Shown piece after piece: positions 25,825 to 59,650 of a stretch of 64,000 bases of DNA. The DNA is taken from positions 71,327 through 135,326 of the forward strand of contig CAVVQV010000017.1 of assembly GCA_963750495.1 (NCBI GenBank), given 5' to 3'. A program made the position numbers and the translations under genes. The notes under the pieces were generated by a model. It was not told the origin of the DNA and searched no databases. It worked only from the letters and a program-made list of their open reading frames with translations. Within the stretch, counting starts at the first letter, position 1; every line of letters begins with the position of its first letter. Source of the DNA: an uncultured Actinomycetota bacterium (GTDB taxonomy: Bacteria; Actinomycetota; Actinomycetes; Propionibacteriales; Nocardioidaceae).

Positions 25825-25866
25825 CCCATCCCCGCAGTCCCATCCCCGCAGTCCCATCCCCGCAGG
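25825..25866 (+). repeat. 14-bp tandem repeat x3 (CCCATCCCCGCAGT)
   Basis: Three head-to-tail copies in the DUF4331-TPR intergenic region. The last copy ends in G. Confidence 0.9.
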
Positions 25867-32615: not shown

Positions 32616-35048
32616 ATGATCGGCATCGTCGTGGTCTCGCACAGCCGAGCCCTCGCCGATGCAGCCGTCGGGCTCGCTCGCGAGATGGTCGACGCCGAGA
32701 CTGCACCGGCGATCGTCGTGGCGGCCGGCCTGGACGAGACGACGTTCGGTACCGACGCGACTGCGGTGTCGGCCGCGATCGAGCAGGTGGATTCACCCGA
32801 CGGTGTCCTCGTGCTGCTCGACCTCGGCAGTGCTGTCCTCAGTGGCGAGATGGCCCTGGAGTTCCTCGACCCGGACCTGGCCGGTCGCGTCCGGCTGTCC
32901 AGCGCTCCACTGGTCGAAGGTCTCGTCGCCGCCGTGGTGCTGGCGTCCACCGGTGCCGAGCTCGACGCCGTGGTGGCTGAGGCCGAGTCGGGGTTGTTGG
33001 CGAAGCAGTCCCACCTCGGCTCCGGCGGCGAGGCCGCCGCGCCGTCGGCAGCCGGGAGTGAGTCTGCGCGCCCGGACGCCACCACCGAGGTCACTGTGTC
33101 CAACCCGCACGGCCTCCATGCCCGCCCGGCTGCCAAGGTCGTCACACTCGTCCGCAGTTTCGACGCGACCGTGACACTGCGCAACCTGGACACCGGGAAA
33201 GGGCCGGTCCCTGCGGGCAGCCTGAGTGCGGTGGCCACGCTGGACGCCCGCCTGGGGCATCGGCTCGAGGTGTCGGCCTCGGGGGCACAGGCCGCTGATG
33301 CGCTGCGCGCCTTCGAGGAGCTGGCGGAGCGGGACTTCGACGACGTACCGGTGCCACCCTCGTCGCCGTCAAAGGTTGACGGCCCGGCGGCGGGGAGTGG
33401 TCTCGATCTGGCGATGGGGCCTGCTCTGGTCCTGAGCGCGACGGTCGACATATCCGCCTACGAGGCGGGGGACGGTCAGGCTGAGCTCGCCCGCTCGGCC
33501 CAGGCGGTCGATGCGGTCCGGGCTCGTCTCGAGGAGCTGCAACGGCGCACGGCCGAGACGTCCGGACCCGAGGCAGCCGACATCTTCGTCGCCCAGACGG
33601 CCCTGCTCGACGACCCCGAGATCACCGCGCCGGTCGACGACGCGATCGCGGCGGGAACACCGGCGCCGCAGGCCTGGCGTGACCGGCTGGACGCCGTGGC
33701 AGCACAGTTCGAAGGCCTCGCCGACGCCTACCAGCGCGAACGCGCGGCAGACGTGCGCAGCGTGCAGGCGAGTGTGCTGCGGGCGCTGACCGGTGAGGCG
33801 GAGACCGAGCTCGACACCGGTGGCGAGCCCGTGATCCTTGTCGTGGACGAGCTCGACGCTGCCACGGCCGCCTCGATCGACGCCGACGCCGTGGCAGGAG
33901 TGGTGACGATCGCGCGTGGTACCACGGGGCACGGCGTCATCGTGGCCTCCTCGCGCGGTATCCCGCTGATGACCGGTGCCGGTGCGGATGCCGCCGGGGT
34001 CCGTACCGGACAGCTGGTTTCCTTCGACGCTCGCAGCCACAGCTTCGTTGCCGACGTGAGTGCGGAGGAGCGGCGACGTTTCCCTGATCTCGTGGCCGAG
34101 CGGCGGCGCGAGCGAGAGCAGGTCGTGCAGGCGGCCCAGACGCCGGCGGTGACCCGCGACGGGACTGCGATCCCGGTGTTCGCGAACCTCGCCTCGGTCG
34201 CCGACGCGGACAGCGCGAGCGCCAACGGGGCCGAGGGCTCGGGCCTGGTCCGAACCGAGGTCCTGTTCGGTGACCGTTCGGTGGCACCGACGGTCGAGGA
34301 GCAGGTGGAGATGTTCCTGGCTCTGGCGAAGTCGTTGGGTGGCGCGCCGTTGACGATCCGGACGTGGGACATCGGCGGCGACAAGCCGCTGCCGTTCCTC
34401 GCCCAGGCTGCTGAGGCCAACCCGTTCCTGGGCGAGCGCGGGCTGCGGGTGTTCCGACGTCGGCCGGACTTGTTGCGGGACCAGCTCATCGCGATCTGGC
34501 AGGCCGCGCGTCAGACGCCGCTGCGGGTCATGTTCCCGATGGTCACCGAGCCGGCCGAGGTGGCGTTCGCGCGGGACCTGCTCGCGGCCGCTCGAGGAGA
34601 CGTCACCGGAGTCGACCTCTCGGTCGGCATCATGGTCGAGGTACCCGCTGCCGCCCTGACGGTGGAGTCCCTGGCCGCCGACCTCGACTTCGTCAGCATC
34701 GGGACCAACGACCTGACCCAGTACACGATGGCCGTCGACCGCGGCAACGACGCCGTGGCCGACCTCGCCGACCCGATGGGCCCGGCCGTGCTCCGCCTCA
34801 TCGACCGCGTGTGCCGCCGGCGCCCGCCGGGCGTCGAGGTGGCCGTCTGCGGTGACCTGGCGAGTCGCCCAGGCGTCATACCCCTGCTGCTCGGCCTGGG
34901 GGTCGACGAGCTCAGCTGTACGCCGCCCCGGGTGCCGGAGGTCAAGCAGGCGGTCCGGGCCACCGACCTCACCTCGGCCCGGGAGCTGGCGGCCGCCTGC
35001 CTGGCCGCCCCCGATGCCCCCTCCGTCCGCCGCCTCCTGCTTCGTTGA
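32616..35048 (+). CDS. dhaM: DhaM phosphoryl-donor subunit: EIIA(Man)-like + HPr + full-length PTS Enzyme I fusion
   Basis: MIGIVVVSHS (EIIA-Man His). NPHGLHARPAAKVV (HPr His). GTTGHGVIVASSRGIP (EI phospho-His). C-terminal PEP-binding barrel motifs GLVRTEVLF, IRTWDIGGDK, IMVEVPAA, FVSIGTNDLTQY and the catalytic Cys in VAVCGDLAS. Confidence 0.88.
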   Translation: MIGIVVVSHSRALADAAVGLAREMVDAETAPAIVVAAGLDETTFGTDATAVSAAIEQVDSPDGVLVLLDLGSAVLSGEMALEFLDPDLAGRVRLSSAPLVEGLVAAVVLASTGAELDAVVAEAESGLLAKQSHLGSGGEAAAPSAAGSESARPDATTEVTVSNPHGLHARPAAKVVTLVRSFDATVTLRNLDTGKGPVPAGSLSAVATLDARLGHRLEVSASGAQAADALRAFEELAERDFDDVPVPPSSPSKVDGPAAGSGLDLAMGPALVLSATVDISAYEAGDGQAELARSAQAVDAVRARLEELQRRTAETSGPEAADIFVAQTALLDDPEITAPVDDAIAAGTPAPQAWRDRLDAVAAQFEGLADAYQRERAADVRSVQASVLRALTGEAETELDTGGEPVILVVDELDAATAASIDADAVAGVVTIARGTTGHGVIVASSRGIPLMTGAGADAAGVRTGQLVSFDARSHSFVADVSAEERRRFPDLVAERRREREQVVQAAQTPAVTRDGTAIPVFANLASVADADSASANGAEGSGLVRTEVLFGDRSVAPTVEEQVEMFLALAKSLGGAPLTIRTWDIGGDKPLPFLAQAAEANPFLGERGLRVFRRRPDLLRDQLIAIWQAARQTPLRVMFPMVTEPAEVAFARDLLAAARGDVTGVDLSVGIMVEVPAAALTVESLAADLDFVSIGTNDLTQYTMAVDRGNDAVADLADPMGPAVLRLIDRVCRRRPPGVEVAVCGDLASRPGVIPLLLGLGVDELSCTPPRVPEVKQAVRATDLTSARELAAACLAAPDAPSVRRLLLR

Positions 35049-35110
35049 ACCGTGAGTTGTGGTCCTTTGAACCGTGAGTTGTGGTCCCTTGAACCGTGAG
35101 TTGTGGCGCT
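35045..35110 (+). repeat. 22-bp tandem repeat family, locus A (3 units)
   Basis: TTGAACCGTGAGTTGTGGTCCT / ...GTCCC / ...GCGCT, head to tail. The dhaM stop TGA (35046-35048) is inside unit 1. Confidence 0.97.
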
Positions 35111-41707: not shown

Positions 41708-41764
41708 TCCTGCCCTGCGGCCCTGACCTGCAGCCCTGACCGCACGCCGTCGTACGATCGGCCC

Positions 41765-47287: not shown

Positions 47288-48340
47288 GTGCCCTCCGGCG
47301 CCTGGGCCGACACCATCGACCGGCGTCTCCTGCTGGTCGTGTCGGCGGTGGTCTACGCCGGCGCGTTCAGCGCCTGGATGCTGCTGCCGACCTACACCGG
47401 CTATGCCCTCGGGTTCGTCCTGTGGGGGCTCTCGAGCGCCCTGATGTCGGGCACCTTCGAGTCGGCGCTGTACGACGAGCTCGTCCTTCGGGGAGCCGAT
47501 GCGGCGTACCCGGGCCTCATCGGATGGGCCCACTCCACCGCGATGATGGCCAACCTCGTGGCGACCCTGGCGGCAGCACCGTTGATCGCGCTCGGTGGCT
47601 ATGGCCTCGTCGGCTGGACGTCGGTGGCGATCGCCGGCGGGCAGGCGGTGCTGGCCGCGACCTTGCCTTTCTCGCCGTCGGCACGGAAACCGAACCGGTC
47701 GCACCATCTCTTGGCCAAGACAGAAGCGTTGGCGGCGCGGTACGTCGCGATGCTGCGTGCAGGCATCCGGGAGGCGTCGAGGTCGGTCGACGTCCGTCGT
47801 GTCGTCCTGCTCTCCTCGCTGCTGGTCGGGCTGACTGCCTACGACGAGTACTTTCCACTGGTCGCCAAGGACCACGGTGTCTCGACGTCGACGATCCCGC
47901 TGCTCATCGGGATGGCCGTCGTGGGGCAGGTCGTGGGTACCGCCCTGGCCGGGCGGACGGCCGGGATGAGCTCTCGCACGATCGCCGTCGTGGTCGTGGC
48001 CGGTGGCGGTCTGATCTCGCTCGGCGCGCTGGTCTGGCCGTACGCCGGGTTCGTCGCCATCGCAGTCGGCTACGGGCTGCTGAACAACACCATGATCGTC
48101 GCCGAGGCCCGGCTCCAGCAGGTGATCGCCGGTCCGGCTCGGGCGACGGTCACGTCGGTGTACGGGTTCGCGACCGAGGTGGTGGCGCTGGCTGTCTACG
48201 GGAGCTTCGCCGCGGCAGCCGGTTTCGTGTCCGTGCCCAGGCTCGTGGCGCTGCTCGGCATTCCGATCGTGGTCATCGCGTGGTCCGTCGGGCGGTGGTT
48301 CCCCGGACCGCCGAGGCGGCCGGCGGTCGAGGCGGGGTGA
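47288..48340 (+). CDS. MFS transporter (minimal ORF; homology continues upstream to 47123 and ATG 47096 is cut off by an in-frame TGA)
   Basis: Multi-TM protein. The same frame upstream reads VLPRRFRLRVLGYHASRDLVPLYSVYALLFGDHGVSTGQISTLFIIWSLTSFVFEVPSGAWAD, which is TM1-loop-TM2 of this MFS type. There is no ATG/GTG/TTG between 47123 and 47288. Confidence 0.75.
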   Translation: MPSGAWADTIDRRLLLVVSAVVYAGAFSAWMLLPTYTGYALGFVLWGLSSALMSGTFESALYDELVLRGADAAYPGLIGWAHSTAMMANLVATLAAAPLIALGGYGLVGWTSVAIAGGQAVLAATLPFSPSARKPNRSHHLLAKTEALAARYVAMLRAGIREASRSVDVRRVVLLSSLLVGLTAYDEYFPLVAKDHGVSTSTIPLLIGMAVVGQVVGTALAGRTAGMSSRTIAVVVVAGGGLISLGALVWPYAGFVAIAVGYGLLNNTMIVAEARLQQVIAGPARATVTSVYGFATEVVALAVYGSFAAAAGFVSVPRLVALLGIPIVVIAWSVGRWFPGPPRRPAVEAG

Positions 48341-48360
48341 TCTCGACAGGCTCGACCAGC

Positions 48361-48408
48361 GGGGTGGGCTTGATCAGCGGGGTGGGCTTGATCAGCGGGT
48401 GGGCTTGA

Positions 48409-48413
<5 letters not shown>
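48361..48413. repeat. 18-bp tandem repeat x3 (GGGGTGGGCTTGATCAGC) between convergent genes
   Basis: Units at 48361-48378 and 48379-48396, and a 17-nt unit at 48397-48413. A degenerate fourth copy (GGCTCGACCAGC) lies just upstream. The gcdH stop (48409-48411) lies in the last unit. Confidence 0.95.
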
Positions 48414-49646
<1,233 letters not shown>

Positions 49647-53024: not shown

Positions 53025-53839
53025 GTACGCCGGGGTTCCGCCTTTCGCGCGGCAGCACCTGGGCACTGCGCGGCCTGGTCGCGCTCGTGTTGGCGTTCAT
53101 CTACGTGCCGCTCGGCGTCGTCGTGATCAACTCGTTCAACTCCGACAAGACGTTCTCGTGGCCGCCCCGCAGCTTCACCCTCGAGTGGTGGCGGCGGGCC
53201 AAGGACAGCACGGGAATGATCAACGCGCTCCAGGAGTCGGTGAAGATCGGGCTCCTCGCCACGGCGATCGCGCTCGTGCTCGGCACGCTCGCGGCCTTCG
53301 CGTTGACGCGGCACCGCTTCTTCGGGCGGGAGGCCGTGTCGCTGCTGATCGTGCTGCCGATCGCCCTGCCGGGCATCGTCACGGGCATCGCCCTGAGCAA
53401 CGCGTTCACCACGATCCTCGGTGTCGGACTGTCGGTCTGGTCGCTCGTCATCGCGCATGCGACCTTCTGCATCGTGGTCGTGTTCAACAACGTGGTGGCC
53501 AGGCTGCGACGGTTGGGCGGGAACATCGAGGAAGCCTCGATGGACCTCGGGGCGACCCGGCTGACGACCTTCCGCCTCATCACGCTGCCCAACCTCGGCG
53601 GGGCGCTGGTCGCCGGCGCGCTGCTGGCCTTTGCGTTGTCGTTCGACGAGATCGTCGTCACGACGTTCACCGCACCGGCTGACGTCCAGACGCTACCGCT
53701 GTGGATCTACAACAACCTGCTCAGCCGGCAGCAGGCGCCCATCGTCAACGTCACCGCGGCGGCGCTGATCCTGGTGTCGGTGCTGCCGATCTACCTCTCG
53801 CAGAAGATCTCCGGCGACGAGTCCGCCGGCCGGCTCTGA
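53021..53839 (+). CDS. ABC transporter permease, second system
   Basis: EAA loop EEASMDLGATRLTTFRLITLPN. 4-nt overlap with the upstream permease gene. Confidence 0.9.
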   Translation: MSTPGFRLSRGSTWALRGLVALVLAFIYVPLGVVVINSFNSDKTFSWPPRSFTLEWWRRAKDSTGMINALQESVKIGLLATAIALVLGTLAAFALTRHRFFGREAVSLLIVLPIALPGIVTGIALSNAFTTILGVGLSVWSLVIAHATFCIVVVFNNVVARLRRLGGNIEEASMDLGATRLTTFRLITLPNLGGALVAGALLAFALSFDEIVVTTFTAPADVQTLPLWIYNNLLSRQQAPIVNVTAAALILVSVLPIYLSQKISGDESAGRL

Positions 53840-53884
53840 CCCCCCGCCCCGCGCTGACCCCCGTCCCGCGCTGCCCCTCTCGCC

Positions 53885-53910
53885 GGGCAGCCCCCGTCGC
53901 CGGGCTGCCC
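53885..53910 (+). terminator. GC-rich hairpin after the permease gene
   Basis: GGGCAGCCC-n8-GGGCTGCCC (9-bp stem), flanked by two 19-nt direct repeats CCCCCGTCCCGCGCTGCCC (53858-53876 and 53908-53926). Confidence 0.4.
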
Positions 53911-53939
53911 CCGTCCCGCGCTGCCCACGGTGGCTCTCC

Positions 53940-53987
53940 GTGTTTGTCTTGTGCGGTGTTTGTCTTGTGCGGTGTTTGTCTTGTGAA
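53940..53987 (+). repeat. 16-bp tandem repeat x3 (GTGTTTGTCTTGTGCG), low GC
   Basis: Units at 53940-53955, 53956-53971 and 53972-53987. The last unit ends in AA instead of CG. Confidence 0.95.
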
Positions 53988-55775: not shown

Positions 55776-55879
55776 TCGCTTCGCTCCTCCGCCTTGCGAT
55801 GCATCCACCCGACCACCGCCCACTCGCCGGTTCAGATGGCTTGGGCTACAGACTTCTTTCGATGTTCGGAAAGGCATAC

Positions 55880-57079
55880 ATGAAGATTTTGCTAGTTGGT
55901 GCGGGGGGCGTGGGGGCGGCGTTCGCTGCGATCGCAGCGCGGCGGGACTTCTTCGAACGCGTGGTCATCGCCGACTACGACCTGTCCCGCGCCGAGCGGG
56001 CGGCCGCGGACGACGACAGATTCGACGCAGCCCAGGTCGACGCCTCGGACGCAGCATCGATCGAGGCACTGGTGCGCGCGCACCAGATCACGCACGTCAT
56101 GAACGCAGTTGACCCGCGCTTCGTGATGCCGATCTTCAACGGTGCGTACGCCGGGGGAGCGGACTACCTCGACATGGCGATGAGCTTGTCCCGGCCGCAC
56201 CCCGAGGCCCCATACGAGCAGACTGGGGTGATGCTCGGCGACGAGCAGTTCGCGGTCGCCGGCGACTGGGAGGCGGCCGGGCGCCTGGCACTGGTCGGCA
56301 TCGGCGTCGAGCCTGGCCTGTCGGACGTGTTCGCGCGGTACGCCGCCGACCATCTCTTCAGCGAGATCGACGAGCTCGGCGTACGCGACGGTGCCAACCT
56401 CACCGTCGACGGCTACGACTTTGCGCCGTCCTTCTCGATCTGGACGACGATCGAGGAATGCCTCAACCCGCCGGTCGTGTGGGAGAAAGACCGTGGCTGG
56501 TTCACGACCGAGCCGTTCTCCGAGCCGGAGGTCTTCGAGTTTCCGGAGGGCATCGGGCCGGTCGAGTGCGTGAACGTCGAGCACGAAGAGGTGCTCCTCA
56601 TGCCACGCTGGGTCGAGGCCAAGCGGGCGACGTTCAAGTACGGGCTCGGGGACGAGTTCATCGATGTGCTGAAGGTTCTGCACAAGCTCGGGCTCGACAA
56701 GACCGACAAGCTCCGGGTCGGCGGCGTCGAGGTCAGCCCGCGCGACGTGGTGGCCGCGAGCCTGCCTGACCCGGCCACGCTGGGCGACAAGATGCGGGGC
56801 AAGACCTGCGCGGGCTTGTTCGTCACGGGCAGGGGCAAGGACGGGCAGCCGCGGGCCACCTACCTGTATCACGTGGTCGACAACGAGTGGTCGATGCGCG
56901 AGTACGGCCACCAGTGCGTGGTCTGGCAGACCGCGGTCAACCCGGTCGTGGCGCTCGAGCTCCTGGCGGACGGCACCTGGTCGGGTGCCGGCGTGCTCGG
57001 CCCGGAGGCGTTCGACGCCGTACCCTTCCTCGACCTGCTGACCGCCTACGGATCCCCCTGGTCCCTCGAAGACCGTTGA
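55880..57079 (+). CDS. saccharopine dehydrogenase family oxidoreductase
   Basis: N-terminal Rossmann fold MKILLVGAGGVGAAFAAIA and family-typical length. ATG 55880 follows GGAAAGG. The TGA stop lies inside the first 22-bp repeat unit. Confidence 0.8.
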   Translation: MKILLVGAGGVGAAFAAIAARRDFFERVVIADYDLSRAERAAADDDRFDAAQVDASDAASIEALVRAHQITHVMNAVDPRFVMPIFNGAYAGGADYLDMAMSLSRPHPEAPYEQTGVMLGDEQFAVAGDWEAAGRLALVGIGVEPGLSDVFARYAADHLFSEIDELGVRDGANLTVDGYDFAPSFSIWTTIEECLNPPVVWEKDRGWFTTEPFSEPEVFEFPEGIGPVECVNVEHEEVLLMPRWVEAKRATFKYGLGDEFIDVLKVLHKLGLDKTDKLRVGGVEVSPRDVVAASLPDPATLGDKMRGKTCAGLFVTGRGKDGQPRATYLYHVVDNEWSMREYGHQCVVWQTAVNPVVALELLADGTWSGAGVLGPEAFDAVPFLDLLTAYGSPWSLEDR

Positions 57080-57163
57080 ACCGTGAGTTGTGGCTCCTTC
57101 AACCGTGAGTTGTGACTCCTTCAACCGTGAGTTGTGGCTCCTCGAACCGTGAGTTGTGGTGCT
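57076..57163 (+). repeat. 22-bp tandem repeat family, locus B (4 units)
   Basis: TTGAACCGTGAGTTGTGGCTCC / TTCAACCGTGAGTTGTGACTCC / TTCAACCGTGAGTTGTGGCTCC / TCGAACCGTGAGTTGTGGTGCT. The stop TGA at 57077-57079 is in unit 1. Confidence 0.97.
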
Positions 57164-57183
57164 TCGTCACACGGAAGGTCGGA

Positions 57184-58250
57184 ATGCTGAGAACACGTCT
57201 TGGTTGGCTTCTCGACGTGAGCACCTCTCAAGATCCCGAAGTCCGCCCGCTGTCCCTGCTCGATTTCGTCGACATTCCGTCAGGGCTGTCGGCAACCGAG
57301 GCGATGGCGCGGACCGTCACGACGGCCCAGGCAGCGGACCGCCTGGGCTACAAGCGCTTTTGGATCTCTGAGCATCACAACTTCGAAGGACTGGCGAGCA
57401 GCTCGCCAGAGATCCTGATCAGCCACGTGGCCTCGGCCACTCGGAGCATCCGGTAGGAGCCGCCGGGATCATGCTGCCGAACCACGCGCCGCTCAAGGTC
57501 GCCGAGTGGTTCAAGACTCTCGAGATGCTGCACCCGGGTCGCATCGACCTCGGCCTGGGGAGGGCACCGGGCACTGACCAGGTCACGGCATTCGCGCTAC
57601 GGCGCTCGCGCGAGTCAGCGGGTGCTCCTGACTTTCCGGAGCAGGCTGCCGAGCTGATCGCGTTCCTCACCGACGAATGGCCGGACGAGCATCCCTTCGC
57701 CACGGTGCGAGCCACGCCGGTCGTGGATGGTCAGCCCGAACTGCTGATGCTGGGATCGAGCGGTTGGGGATCGGCGTTCGCGGCCGTGAACGGGATGACC
57801 TCGGTCTTCGCACACCACATGAGCCCCGACCTCGCGGTCGACGCGCTTCAGGCGTACCGGCGAGACTTCCGACCGTCCGAGCTGGGTAGTGCGCCGCGCG
57901 TCATCGTGTCCGCTCTCGCGCTGGCCTCGCACGATCCCGATGTGGTGGCCGACTTCCGCGCCGGCTGGACCCTGGGTATGCGCTATATCCGCAGCGGTGC
58001 GAAGCGTAGGCCGACGCCCGAGGAGATCCGCGAGTTCCGGACGTCGTCGAAGTACGCCGAGATCGAACCGACGCTGCGGGGGCGTGTCTTCGCGGGGTCG
58101 CCCGACGTGGTTGCCCGCGACCTGGCGGCGCTCGCAGATGCTGCCGGCGCCGATGAACTGACGCTGGTCGCGCCGACGCCCGACCACGAAGCCAAGCTGG
58201 CCTCGCTCGAACTCCTGGCCAAGCAGTGGGGCCTGGAGCCGCAAGTCTGA
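57184..58250 (+). pseudogene. LLM-class (luciferase-like) flavin-dependent oxidoreductase, frameshifted
   Basis: N-part (57184-57456: PLSLLDFVDIPSG...[14 protein letters not shown]...SATRSIR*) and C-part (57471-58250: [34 protein letters not shown]...) are in different frames. Restoring one G at 57451-57453 gives [18 protein letters not shown]. Confidence 0.85.
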
Positions 58251-58268
58251 CGTCCATACTGAGCTTTC

Positions 58269-58408
58269 GGCTCGAGGGGCCACAACTCACGGCTCGAGGG
58301 GCCACAACTCACGGTTCGAGGGGCCACAACTCACGGTTCGAGGGGCCACAACTCACGGTTCGAGGGGCCACAACTCACGGTTCAAGGAGCCACAACTCAC
58401 GGTTCAAC
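58269..58408 (-). repeat. 22-bp tandem repeat family, locus C (6 units plus an 8-nt partial), reverse orientation
   Basis: Plus strand: GGCTCGAGGGGCCACAACTCAC x2, GGTTCGAGGGGCCACAACTCAC x3, GGTTCAAGGAGCCACAACTCAC, then GGTTCAAC. On the minus strand the array begins 10 nt after the TAG of the 58418-59650 gene. Confidence 0.97.
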
Positions 58409-58417
58409 GAAGGCGGG

Positions 58418-59650
58418 CTAGGAGTCGAGGGCGGTCGTGATGGCTGAGGCGAGGTCGTCGACCTCGGAGTCGGTCATCACGAAGGCGGGGGAGACCTGGA
58501 TGCCGCCGGCACCGACCGCGCGGGTGGCCACGCCGTGTGACCGCAGCATCTTGGCCAGCGCCATCGCCTCGGCGGGATCGCTGAGCTGGATCGCCGCCAG
58601 CGCACCGGTTCCACACCGCACCTCGACGACGCGTTCGTGATCCGCCAGCGGCTTGAGCCGCGCAGCCAGCGACGACTCGAGGCGAGCCGACTCGTCCAAC
58701 AGGTTCTCCCGCTCGAGGATGTCGAGGTTGGCCAGCGCCACCGCCGCCGCGGCGGCATGTCCGGAGTACGTGTAGCCGTGCCGCCACCACACCCCGGCGT
58801 CCGGCTGGAAGAACGGCTCGGACACCTTCGGCGCGATCAGCACCGCACCCATAGGCAGGTAGCCCGAGGTCAGACCCTTGGCTGTGGTGATCATGTCGGG
58901 CTCGAGCCCGAACCGACCGCTTGCGAACCAGGCGCCGCCGATGCGCCCGTAGCCCGTCACGACCTCGTCGGCCACGAACAGCACGTCGTACTCCGTGCAC
59001 ACCTTGCGGACGTCGGCGAGATAACCGTCCGGCGGTGGGTAGACGCCGCCCGCGCCGATCACGGGCTCGCAGAAGAACGCCGCGACGTTCTCCGGCCCGA
59101 GCCGCTCGATCGTCGTACGCAGGTCTCCGGCGTCATCCCACGCGACCGTGGCGCTGTCGTGCACCAGGTCGCCGTAACCCTCGCGGTTACCCGGAATCCC
59201 GGCGATCGACGTCCCGGCGTAGTGCATGCCGTGGTAGGCCTTCTGCCGTCCGATCAGGTAGCGCCGCTGGGGCTGACCCATCTCGTTCCAGTACCGACGG
59301 GCCAGCTTCGCCGCGGTGTCGACCGAGTCCGAGCCACCCGACGTGAAGAACACCTTCGAGCCGGGCACCGGTGCGATCCCTGCGAGCCGTTCCGCGAGCG
59401 CCACCGTCGGCTCGGTCACGTAGTCGCCGAACGTGCTGTACGCCGCCATCTTGCTCATCTGCTCGGCAGCGACCTCGCCGAGCTCGGCACGGCCATGTCC
59501 GACGTTGGTGAACCAGAGCCCCGCCGTGGCGTCGAGGTAACGGTTGCCCTCGGGGTCGAAGACGTACGTACCCTCGCCGCGCGCGATGACGAACTCGCCG
59601 TTGCGTTCGACGGCTCCCATGTCCGAGAACGGATGCCATAGCGCGCCCAT
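58418..59650 (-). CDS. class III (omega) aminotransferase
   Basis: MGALWHPFSDMG..., TNVGHGR, ADEVVTGYGRIGG, and the PLP-lysine region ITTAKGLTSGYLPMG. ATG 59650 follows AAGGAG. Confidence 0.88.
   Translation of the reverse strand: MGALWHPFSDMGAVERNGEFVIARGEGTYVFDPEGNRYLDATAGLWFTNVGHGRAELGEVAAEQMSKMAAYSTFGDYVTEPTVALAERLAGIAPVPGSKVFFTSGGSDSVDTAAKLARRYWNEMGQPQRRYLIGRQKAYHGMHYAGTSIAGIPGNREGYGDLVHDSATVAWDDAGDLRTTIERLGPENVAAFFCEPVIGAGGVYPPPDGYLADVRKVCTEYDVLFVADEVVTGYGRIGGAWFASGRFGLEPDMITTAKGLTSGYLPMGAVLIAPKVSEPFFQPDAGVWWRHGYTYSGHAAAAAVALANLDILERENLLDESARLESSLAARLKPLADHERVVEVRCGTGALAAIQLSDPAEAMALAKMLRSHGVATRAVGAGGIQVSPAFVMTDSEVDDLASAITTALDS

Follow-up and report, generated by a model that had tools for sequence, protein, structure and literature searches.

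A dispersed family of 22-bp tandem repeats in the 3' flanks of genes from an uncultured lineage of Nocardioidaceae

The 64,000-nt stretch of DNA analysed here (the window), part of contig CAVVQV010000017.1 of an uncultured bacterium of the Nocardioidaceae, contains a gene of the saccharopine dehydrogenase family (SDH) that is followed by a short tandem array, array B, of four 22-bp units. The original prediction placed these units at 57076-57163 and considered the TGA at 57077-57079 to be both the stop codon of the SDH gene and part of unit 1, and both statements are borne out. The cores of the units start at 57079, 57101, 57123 and 57145, which is an exact 22-nt period, and Tandem Repeats Finder detects a 22-bp period with 3.7 copies, 93% matches and a score of 141. 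From 57070 to 57163, the sequence reads aGAC CGT TGA ACC GTG AGT TGT GG CTCCTTC AACCGTGAGTTGTGA CTCCTTC AACCGTGAGTTGTGG CTCCTCG AACCGTGAGTTGTGG tgct, in which AACCGTGAGTTGTGG represents the 15-nt core of the unit. The same succession of CGT and TGA had been noticed at a second, dhaM-like locus, and it is indeed present there, with the junction at 35043-35048. Units 2 and 3 had been described as having lost the first TGA. This is correct, but unit 4 (CTCGAACC) equally lacks it, and a new TGA that is gained in unit 2 (GTTGTGA) had been overlooked.

Upstream of the array, the open reading frame (ORF) 55799..57079 is recognized by Pfam as a saccharopine dehydrogenase and ends on the TGA at 57077-57079; since SDH homologues are 399 aa long, the true start of the gene is placed at 55880. 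The gene downstream encodes a luciferase-like monooxygenase (LLM). Three blocks from related assemblies, L050, L118 and L115 (L-numbered loci are 8-kb blocks), are syntenic with the window from 51.7 to 59.7 kb and allow its start to be located. The array had been thought to end 20 nt before a start codon ATG 57184, but the frame of this ATG meets a stop in L118 and L050. GTG 57217 is conserved in the orthologues, where the gene calls begin at GTG, and from this comparison it is probably GTG 57217 rather than ATG 57184 that starts the LLM gene. The distance from the last core of array B is then 57 nt, and the claim that the array occupies most of the intercistronic space holds in the sense that it covers about 60% of the SDH-LLM spacer as counted to GTG 57217. 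The frameshift that had been predicted in the LLM gene is real in the sequence: one nucleotide of a G run near 57452 (57445-57460) is deleted, which shifts the frame, the window having ATCCG-GTAGG versus ATCCGGGTCGG in L118 and ATCCGTGTTGG in L115, the orthologues of which are intact at 345 aa each. It reflects either a genuine pseudogene or a homopolymer error of a long-read assembly.

Array B is one of three in the window (Table 1). With up to three mismatches, 13 matches to the core are found, all of them within these arrays, while 1.3 would be expected by chance and none of 100 shuffles of the window reached this number. The cores span 35048-35106 (+) in array A, 57079-57159 (+) in array B and 58280-58404 (-) in array C. 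Arrays B and C, inverted with respect to each other, flank the LLM gene, and the aminotransferase gene next to array C stops on a TAG (58418-58420), 14 nt ahead of the first core of that array. An nhmmer search of the window revealed no degenerate solo remnants above noise, and Rfam 15, searched with the whole window, gave nothing at gathering score and only chance-level matches at permissive settings.

Table 1. Position of the three arrays, the stop codons within them and the adjoining genes in the window
Feature	Position	Strand	Remarks
Array A	35042..35106	+	head TCGTTG, then three units
TGA, stop of a PTS HPr/enzyme-I (DhaM-like) gene, within the head of array A	35046-35048	+	
Saccharopine-dehydrogenase-family (SDH) gene, 399 aa	55880..57079	+	3' end fused to head of array B
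Array B	57073..57163	+	head CCGTTG 57073-57078, then four 22-bp units
TGA shared by the SDH gene (stop codon) and unit 1 of array B	57077..57079	+	
Luciferase-like monooxygenase (LLM) gene	57217..58250	+	start GTG 57217, stop TGA 58250
Array C	58268..58410	-	head TCGTTG 58405-58410, six full units and one partial unit
Class-III aminotransferase gene	58418..59650	-	start approximate, from 410-aa orthologues

The repeat is not restricted to this window. Further loci were collected by an exact 15-mer scan of the GTDB species representatives, the counts being those among the matches listed, and orthologous loci were added through homologues of SDH and PtsI; genes around the loci were called with a heuristic based on GC content at third codon positions (GC3). 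The resulting catalogue comprises at least 33 arrays, which represent 26 or more independent loci of related Nocardioidaceae assemblies; a single metagenome-assembled genome (MAG) contributes 18 arrays or more. Among the matches listed, multi-copy arrays are confined to a small group of uncultured Actinomycetota/Nocardioidaceae MAGs. Single units occur on their own as well (L007, L119); the remaining single 15-mer matches among those listed lack a flanking head and are attributed to chance. A locus from the Acidobacteriota that shares the 15-mer (L079, 2050-2330) proved to be a coding repeat with a 21-nt unit (GSTTTTH...), which is encoded on the opposite strand and is unrelated to the family. 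In the JGI metagenomes, an exact dimer had no match and a shorter core dimer had a single one, the variant L114; a scan of viral contigs yielded no match, and neither did plasmid and phage collections. The repeat sequence was not found in the literature searched, nor was a paper describing the 22-bp family. We are highly confident that the arrays constitute a new dispersed family of gene 3' flanks in a Nocardioidaceae lineage, built as a head followed by tandem repeats.

The anatomy of the element is well defined. A 5' head, consisting of a Y-rich leader and TCGTTG, is followed by 2 to 7 copies (mode 4) of the unit YYCCTTG AACCGTGAGTTGTGG. The spacing between units equals 22 bp in 95 of 100 cases, the core of 15-16 nt is almost invariant and the 7-nt spacer is pyrimidine-rich (YYCCTTG); a GC-rich spacer takes its place in L065 and L114, two more distant lineages that still keep the 22-bp period. 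First units differ from internal ones: they are preceded by TCGTTG and have a G at position -3 in 31 of 33 cases, where 87 of 100 internal units have a C. Slippage within an array would not keep regenerating such a difference, which suggests that the arrays are copies of one founder array, head and units together, and not independent local expansions. On its sense strand, the canonical unit contains two TGAs in different frames (TTGAACC and CCGTGAG). As 22 equals 1 modulo 3, the head TGA together with the second TGA in the core closes every sense frame within about 66 nt. A stop is indeed present in all three sense frames in 32 of the 33 arrays, and 27 of the 33 have no stop in any antisense frame. 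With stops in all sense frames, the 22-bp family is ruled out as a coding repeat. Its anatomy also rules out a CRISPR or type III antitoxin array, the inter-core segments being 7 nt long and almost identical.

The placement of the arrays is strongly non-random. In 22 of the 26 independent loci, the stop codon of an upstream ORF on the strand of the array falls within -22 to +7 nt of the first core, and the head lies 0-22 nt from this stop. In 7 of these loci (12 arrays), the stop is the head TGA itself, in every case read as CGT TGA; in 2 others it is the second TGA, and in the remaining 13 it lies 7-22 nt upstream, with CC directly after the stop in 10. Among the 22 classifiable loci, convergent junctions account for 12, tandem arrangements for 8 (7 sense and 1 antisense) and divergent ones for 2. 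For comparison, 6 of the 47 gene junctions in the window are convergent and 35 are tandem, so that the arrays are enriched between convergent genes. Several of these convergent junctions are little more than the array; in L105, for instance, only 9 nt remain on one side and 2 nt on the other.

These figures bear directly on the role that the original prediction had implied for array B: an intercistronic device resembling the mycobacterial interspersed repetitive units (MIRU), which overlaps the upstream stop, reaches the next start and tunes or couples downstream translation. The stop codon within unit 1 is in agreement with such a device. In addition, the GTGA motif of each unit could in principle permit termination-reinitiation, and unit 3 of the array in the window contains a GTG that shares its reading frame with ATG 57184 and GTG 57217. 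However, the 12 convergent loci offer no downstream cistron on which the device could act. In the six cases with a downstream start codon that were read (the window, L063, L067, L043, L082 and L092/L108), it is separated from the last core by 57, 56, 51, 59, 61 and 51 nt, respectively, which does not support a bridging of the array to it. All three sense frames are closed, the frame relation seen in the window is not conserved, given the stop in the ATG frame of L118 and L050, and the internal GTGs are not accompanied by a Shine-Dalgarno sequence; the spacers resemble an anti-Shine-Dalgarno sequence instead. A coupling function thus appears very improbable. Sharing of the stop codon is probably a tolerated fusion rather than a coupling device. 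An ORF may lose or swap its last codon and stop and end on the CGT-TGA of the element without harm: with CGT-TGA in the head and all frames closed by the element, tolerance of such fusions would follow. As a separate observation, the uniform gap of 51-61 nt between array and start (57160-57216 in the window) is about what a promoter with a short or absent leader would occupy.

Some arrays occur in pairs. Five inverted (+,-) pairs were observed, each with one ordinary gene inside: in the window (57073-58410), L043 (3496-4735), L063 (4224-5383), L067 (307-1161) and L097 (5845-6565). The enclosed genes encode the LLM, a DUF559-like protein, a 289-aa protein, a HAD hydrolase and a YbaK-like protein; (+,+) pairs were not seen, and in L092 a HIT gene lies between a (-,+) pair. 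The LLM gene is present only where both arrays B and C are present. In two relatives without the arrays, a gene for a CHAP-domain protein of about 900 aa is situated between SDH and aminotransferase (L116, 4210-7090; L120, 3716-6215), with no LLM there; one and the same site holds either the LLM segment with its flanking arrays or the CHAP gene.

It could be imagined, in view of these pairs and of the LLM/CHAP exchange, that the arrays act at the level of DNA, as sets of binding sites two helical turns apart for a roadblock or insulator protein, as an iteron-like site, or as the ends of a transposon or cassette such as B-LLM-C. The strict 22-bp period, in which the 15 bp of the core are conserved and the 7 bp of the spacer vary, is maintained even in L065 and L114 and would suit this explanation, as would the absence of RNA structure described below. 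In periodicity, the arrays also match plasmid iterons and transposon-end arrays, which are direct repeats of approximately 17-22 bp that adjoin a rep or transposase gene on a mobile replicon. The flanking genes, however, are of ordinary housekeeping types, no rep or transposase genes were seen, and plasmids and phages provide no match. Most arrays are solo, and the number of pairs is not clearly beyond local clustering. From a site in double-stranded DNA, neither the bias towards the sense strand nor the anchoring to stop codons would be expected, and we regard a DNA-level function as distinctly unlikely.

At the RNA level, the arrays stand out by their lack of structure. Folding z-scores are +1.42, +0.46 and -0.25, and the first 60 nt of the arrays fold at -14.3 kcal versus -20.8 kcal for the background (p = 2e-8), meaning that they are less structured. 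In the 60 nt downstream of the arrays, structure is at the background level, without hairpin enrichment. A consensus scan of 56900-58600 gave no site for an intrinsic terminator (GC-rich hairpin followed by a T run). A consensus promoter was not found in the array either, the TTGAAC of the units having, by eye, no -10 partner at the right spacing. Compared by eye with the motifs for extracytoplasmic function (ECF) sigma factors, the LexA box, the DnaA box, boxA and the heptamers of the Streptomyces antibiotic regulatory proteins (SARP), the unit shows only a partial resemblance.

An unstructured segment right after a stop codon calls to mind a loading site for Rho, a rut (Rho utilization) site, which is formed by an RNA stretch of about 80 nt that is unstructured and in which C outnumbers G. 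The arrays could load Rho on the sense transcript, or, through the C-richer complementary strand, on antisense or convergent read-through transcripts. In structure and in GC content, they rank near the bottom (array B, at 53% GC, falls within the lowest 3.5% of windows), their typical length is 66-110 nt, and they lie right after stops and at convergent junctions without hairpins. On the other hand, the sense strand is G/T-rich and C-poor (22% C, 34% G), the reverse of what characterizes a classical rut site, and the arrays do not agree in their skew, which is -0.31 for A, -0.11 for B and about 0 for C. Moreover, the low sequence specificity of Rho leaves the conserved 15-mer unexplained. Rho loading is thus quite improbable as an explanation for these arrays.

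The history of the arrays can be followed at orthologous loci. Locus B has four units in the window, three and a fragment in L118, three in L115, about 1.5 degenerate ones in L050 and at most a decayed remnant in L116 (CGT TCC TGA GCCGT...), whereas no unit is present in the outgroups L117, L120 and L121, in which the gene ends in GAC CGG TGA, CGA TAG and CGC TGA, respectively. As judged from the aligned loci, array B is inherited vertically with a changing copy number. SDH homologues end in ...PWxxEDR*, including those without arrays, which indicates that the position of the SDH stop and this tail are native and that the element sits exactly on the native stop. The idea that the tail PWSLEDR derives from the element is ruled out on the same ground. 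Likewise, at array A the PtsI tail ...VRxLL(L)R* represents the native C-terminus; in a relative with 80% protein identity, the sequence at this locus reads CTC CTT CGT TGA CCCGTGAGTTGTGG and is followed by a degenerate unit.

At locus C, the copy number ranges from 4 to 7 across orthologues. The aminotransferase gene of L115, L118 and L050 ends in GAT CGT TGA ACC..., with the head TGA as its stop, while the window has GAC TCC TAG CCCGCCT TCGTTGAACC and L116 has no recognizable array (GAC ACC TGA CCCACG...). A tree of 4-fold sites, ((((L118,L050),window),L115),L116),L117, places the junction of the window, with its 14 extra nt (TAG and CCCGCCT), as the derived state by parsimony; this argues against deletion-only origin of the junctions as a general rule. 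In addition, the leader of locus C in the window, CCGCCTTCGTTG, is common to three unrelated loci, L051, L093 and L043b. The derived junction and the shared leader together give a hint of exchange between loci.

The core itself changes slowly. At 4-fold sites, the window has diverged from L118, L050 and L115 by 0.27, 0.26 and 0.37, respectively. First units are anchored by the gene end, so that their alignment is unambiguous, and in seven comparisons of orthologues they differ at 5 of 140 nt, or at 5 of 98 nt when CGT-TGA is left out. In these alignments, the core of the first unit is thus seen to change at least 5 times more slowly than 4-fold sites. This slow change is due either to selection or to uniformity that is kept up from a conserved pool. 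Variants also sweep through single arrays, as with GAGCC throughout the B arrays of L115 and L118 and GTTGCGG in 3 of the 4 units of the C array of L050.

The second of these possibilities leads to the main rival of a host function: a selfish element kept uniform by conversion between loci. The family would then be a selfish or neutral, non-autonomous minisatellite that spreads by copying or conversion, survives at harmless 3' flanks, convergent junctions in particular, and varies by slippage, with its core kept uniform by conversion or re-insertion. Several of the features described above fit well with such a lifestyle, namely the change in copy number and the decay at orthologous loci, the homogenization of variants within arrays, the shared leader and derived junction at locus C, and the failure to find structure, promoter or terminator signals in the arrays. 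The enrichment at convergent junctions, too, would be expected from purifying selection against insertions in promoters and operons. In contrast, this explanation does not readily account for first units that are about 5-fold less divergent than 4-fold sites at positions shared since before speciation, nor for a head junction that is almost invariant (31 of 33). Neither transposase, terminal inverted repeats nor target-site duplications were seen, and there are no plasmid or phage copies. Finally, the 7:1 sense bias in tandem contexts calls for a strand-specific cause. On balance, a purely selfish or neutral origin seems somewhat unlikely.

We favour an explanation in which the element is recognized as part of the transcript. 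It would be transcribed as an unstructured 3' untranslated region (UTR) or spacer, and its core of 13-15 nt would be read by a putative sequence-specific factor, either a protein or an RNA, that marks or insulates gene 3' ends, for example through 3'-end formation or termination at convergent junctions without a hairpin terminator. In this specific form, as a transcribed and unstructured gene-end module that serves 3'-end formation or insulation, the proposal is drawn from sequence comparison and is put forward tentatively, with more doubt than confidence. The more general statement that we are dealing with a MIRU/REP-like gene-end element (REP, repetitive extragenic palindrome) recognized by a putative sequence-specific factor comes close to an even proposition. 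A number of points weigh against a host function of this kind. The census is biased by the exact 15-mer search and by gene calls that rest on the GC3 heuristic. Four of the 26 loci are exceptions in placement: in L022 the array is antisense between tandem genes, L082 and L092b/L108 are divergent regions in which the head adjoins the reverse complement of the Shine-Dalgarno sequence of a HIT gene, and L071 is ambiguous. Arrays decay, as at locus B in L050 and L116, which implies that individual loci are dispensable and can drift or be lost. The exchange between loci that locus C hints at could, moreover, explain the conservation without any host function.

To our knowledge, actinobacteria largely lack canonical hairpin-plus-U terminators, and their gene ends, notably convergent junctions, are poorly understood. 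The 22-bp family provides a concrete candidate for a 3'-end signal, as it is conserved, strand-specific and unstructured as RNA, abuts or supplies stop codons and fills convergent junctions. One may speculate further that the arrays are the cis-sites of an undescribed sequence-specific system that marks 3' ends, a factor-dependent terminator code in this branch of the Nocardioidaceae whose core a protein or RNA would read either on DNA or on the nascent transcript, although we consider this unlikely; in a variant of this idea, inverted array pairs may be the recombination ends of single-gene cassettes. If the element is selfish, it would still be a clean example of a repeat that closes three frames and is able to fuse to ORFs and replace their stops. 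In any case, the arrays are usable as markers of the variable-number tandem repeat (VNTR) type for an uncultured soil lineage.

The window also contains tandem repeats of other kinds, which are locus-specific and not dispersed families. The convergent junction between two ORFs that end at 48340 (+) and 48409 (-) is taken up entirely by an array with an 18-bp unit in 3.8 copies (GGCTTGATCAGCGGGGTG; 48349-48415). This unit is similar to the L097 variant (TTGAyCnGCGGG..G.TGGG) and may be a diverged relative of the 22-bp family. Two adjacent locus-specific arrays occupy 53841-53985, first a C-rich 17-bp unit in 5 copies, which begins 1 nt past the stop TGA 53837-53839, and then GTGTTTGTCTTGTGCG in 2.9 copies; the region 53.85-54.1 kb does not align with the orthologue L050. 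Short C-rich tandem repeats with units of 13 bp and 14 bp are found in gene 3' flanks at 41709-41741 and 25825-25865, the former directly after a TAG. Tandem repeats just past stops seem to be a wider habit of the source genome.

Among known systems, the 22-bp family is closest in kind to MIRU, REP, BOX and STRR (short tandemly repeated repetitive sequences), and it lacks what defines each of them. In MIRUs, small ORFs overlap the stop codon on one side and the start codon on the other, which allows translational coupling in operons. Like MIRU and MIRU-VNTR of Mycobacterium tuberculosis, the present arrays are actinobacterial, are dispersed between genes as head-to-tail arrays of variable copy number and touch gene ends. 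In contrast to MIRU, their units have no open frame, they lie mostly at convergent junctions instead of inside operons, and they possess a distinct head motif. The unit size differs as well, 22 bp versus the 40-100 bp described for MIRU, which occurs at 41 loci, 12 of them polymorphic (PMC2734929).

With REP and the bacterial interspersed mosaic elements (BIME) of enterobacteria and pseudomonads, the family shares a high copy number and a 3' intergenic position, and REP is transcribed together with the upstream gene. Liang, Rudd and Deutscher reportedly found in 2015 an effect on translation for REPs that lie no more than about 15 nt from a stop codon; the range of stop distances of the 22-bp arrays is comparable. 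Yet REP/BIME elements, including REPIN, are imperfect palindromes with stem-loops, whereas the 22-bp arrays are direct repeats that fold worse than background. The pneumococcal BOX elements, dispersed intergenically and built as boxA-(boxB)n-boxC from modules of 45-59 bp with secondary structure, likewise combine a distinct terminal module with a variably repeated internal one and intergenic dispersal. The arrays described here have a shorter unit, are unstructured and show no distinct tail module; BOX, in turn, is not known to be anchored to stop codons. Cyanobacterial STRR consist of heptamer units in tandem and are similar in having short tandem units at many intergenic loci within one lineage. 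We know of no head motif or stop-codon fusion described for STRR; the 22-bp family differs from it by the length of its unit, 22 bp as opposed to a heptamer, and by its head motif and its fusion with the stop codons of genes.

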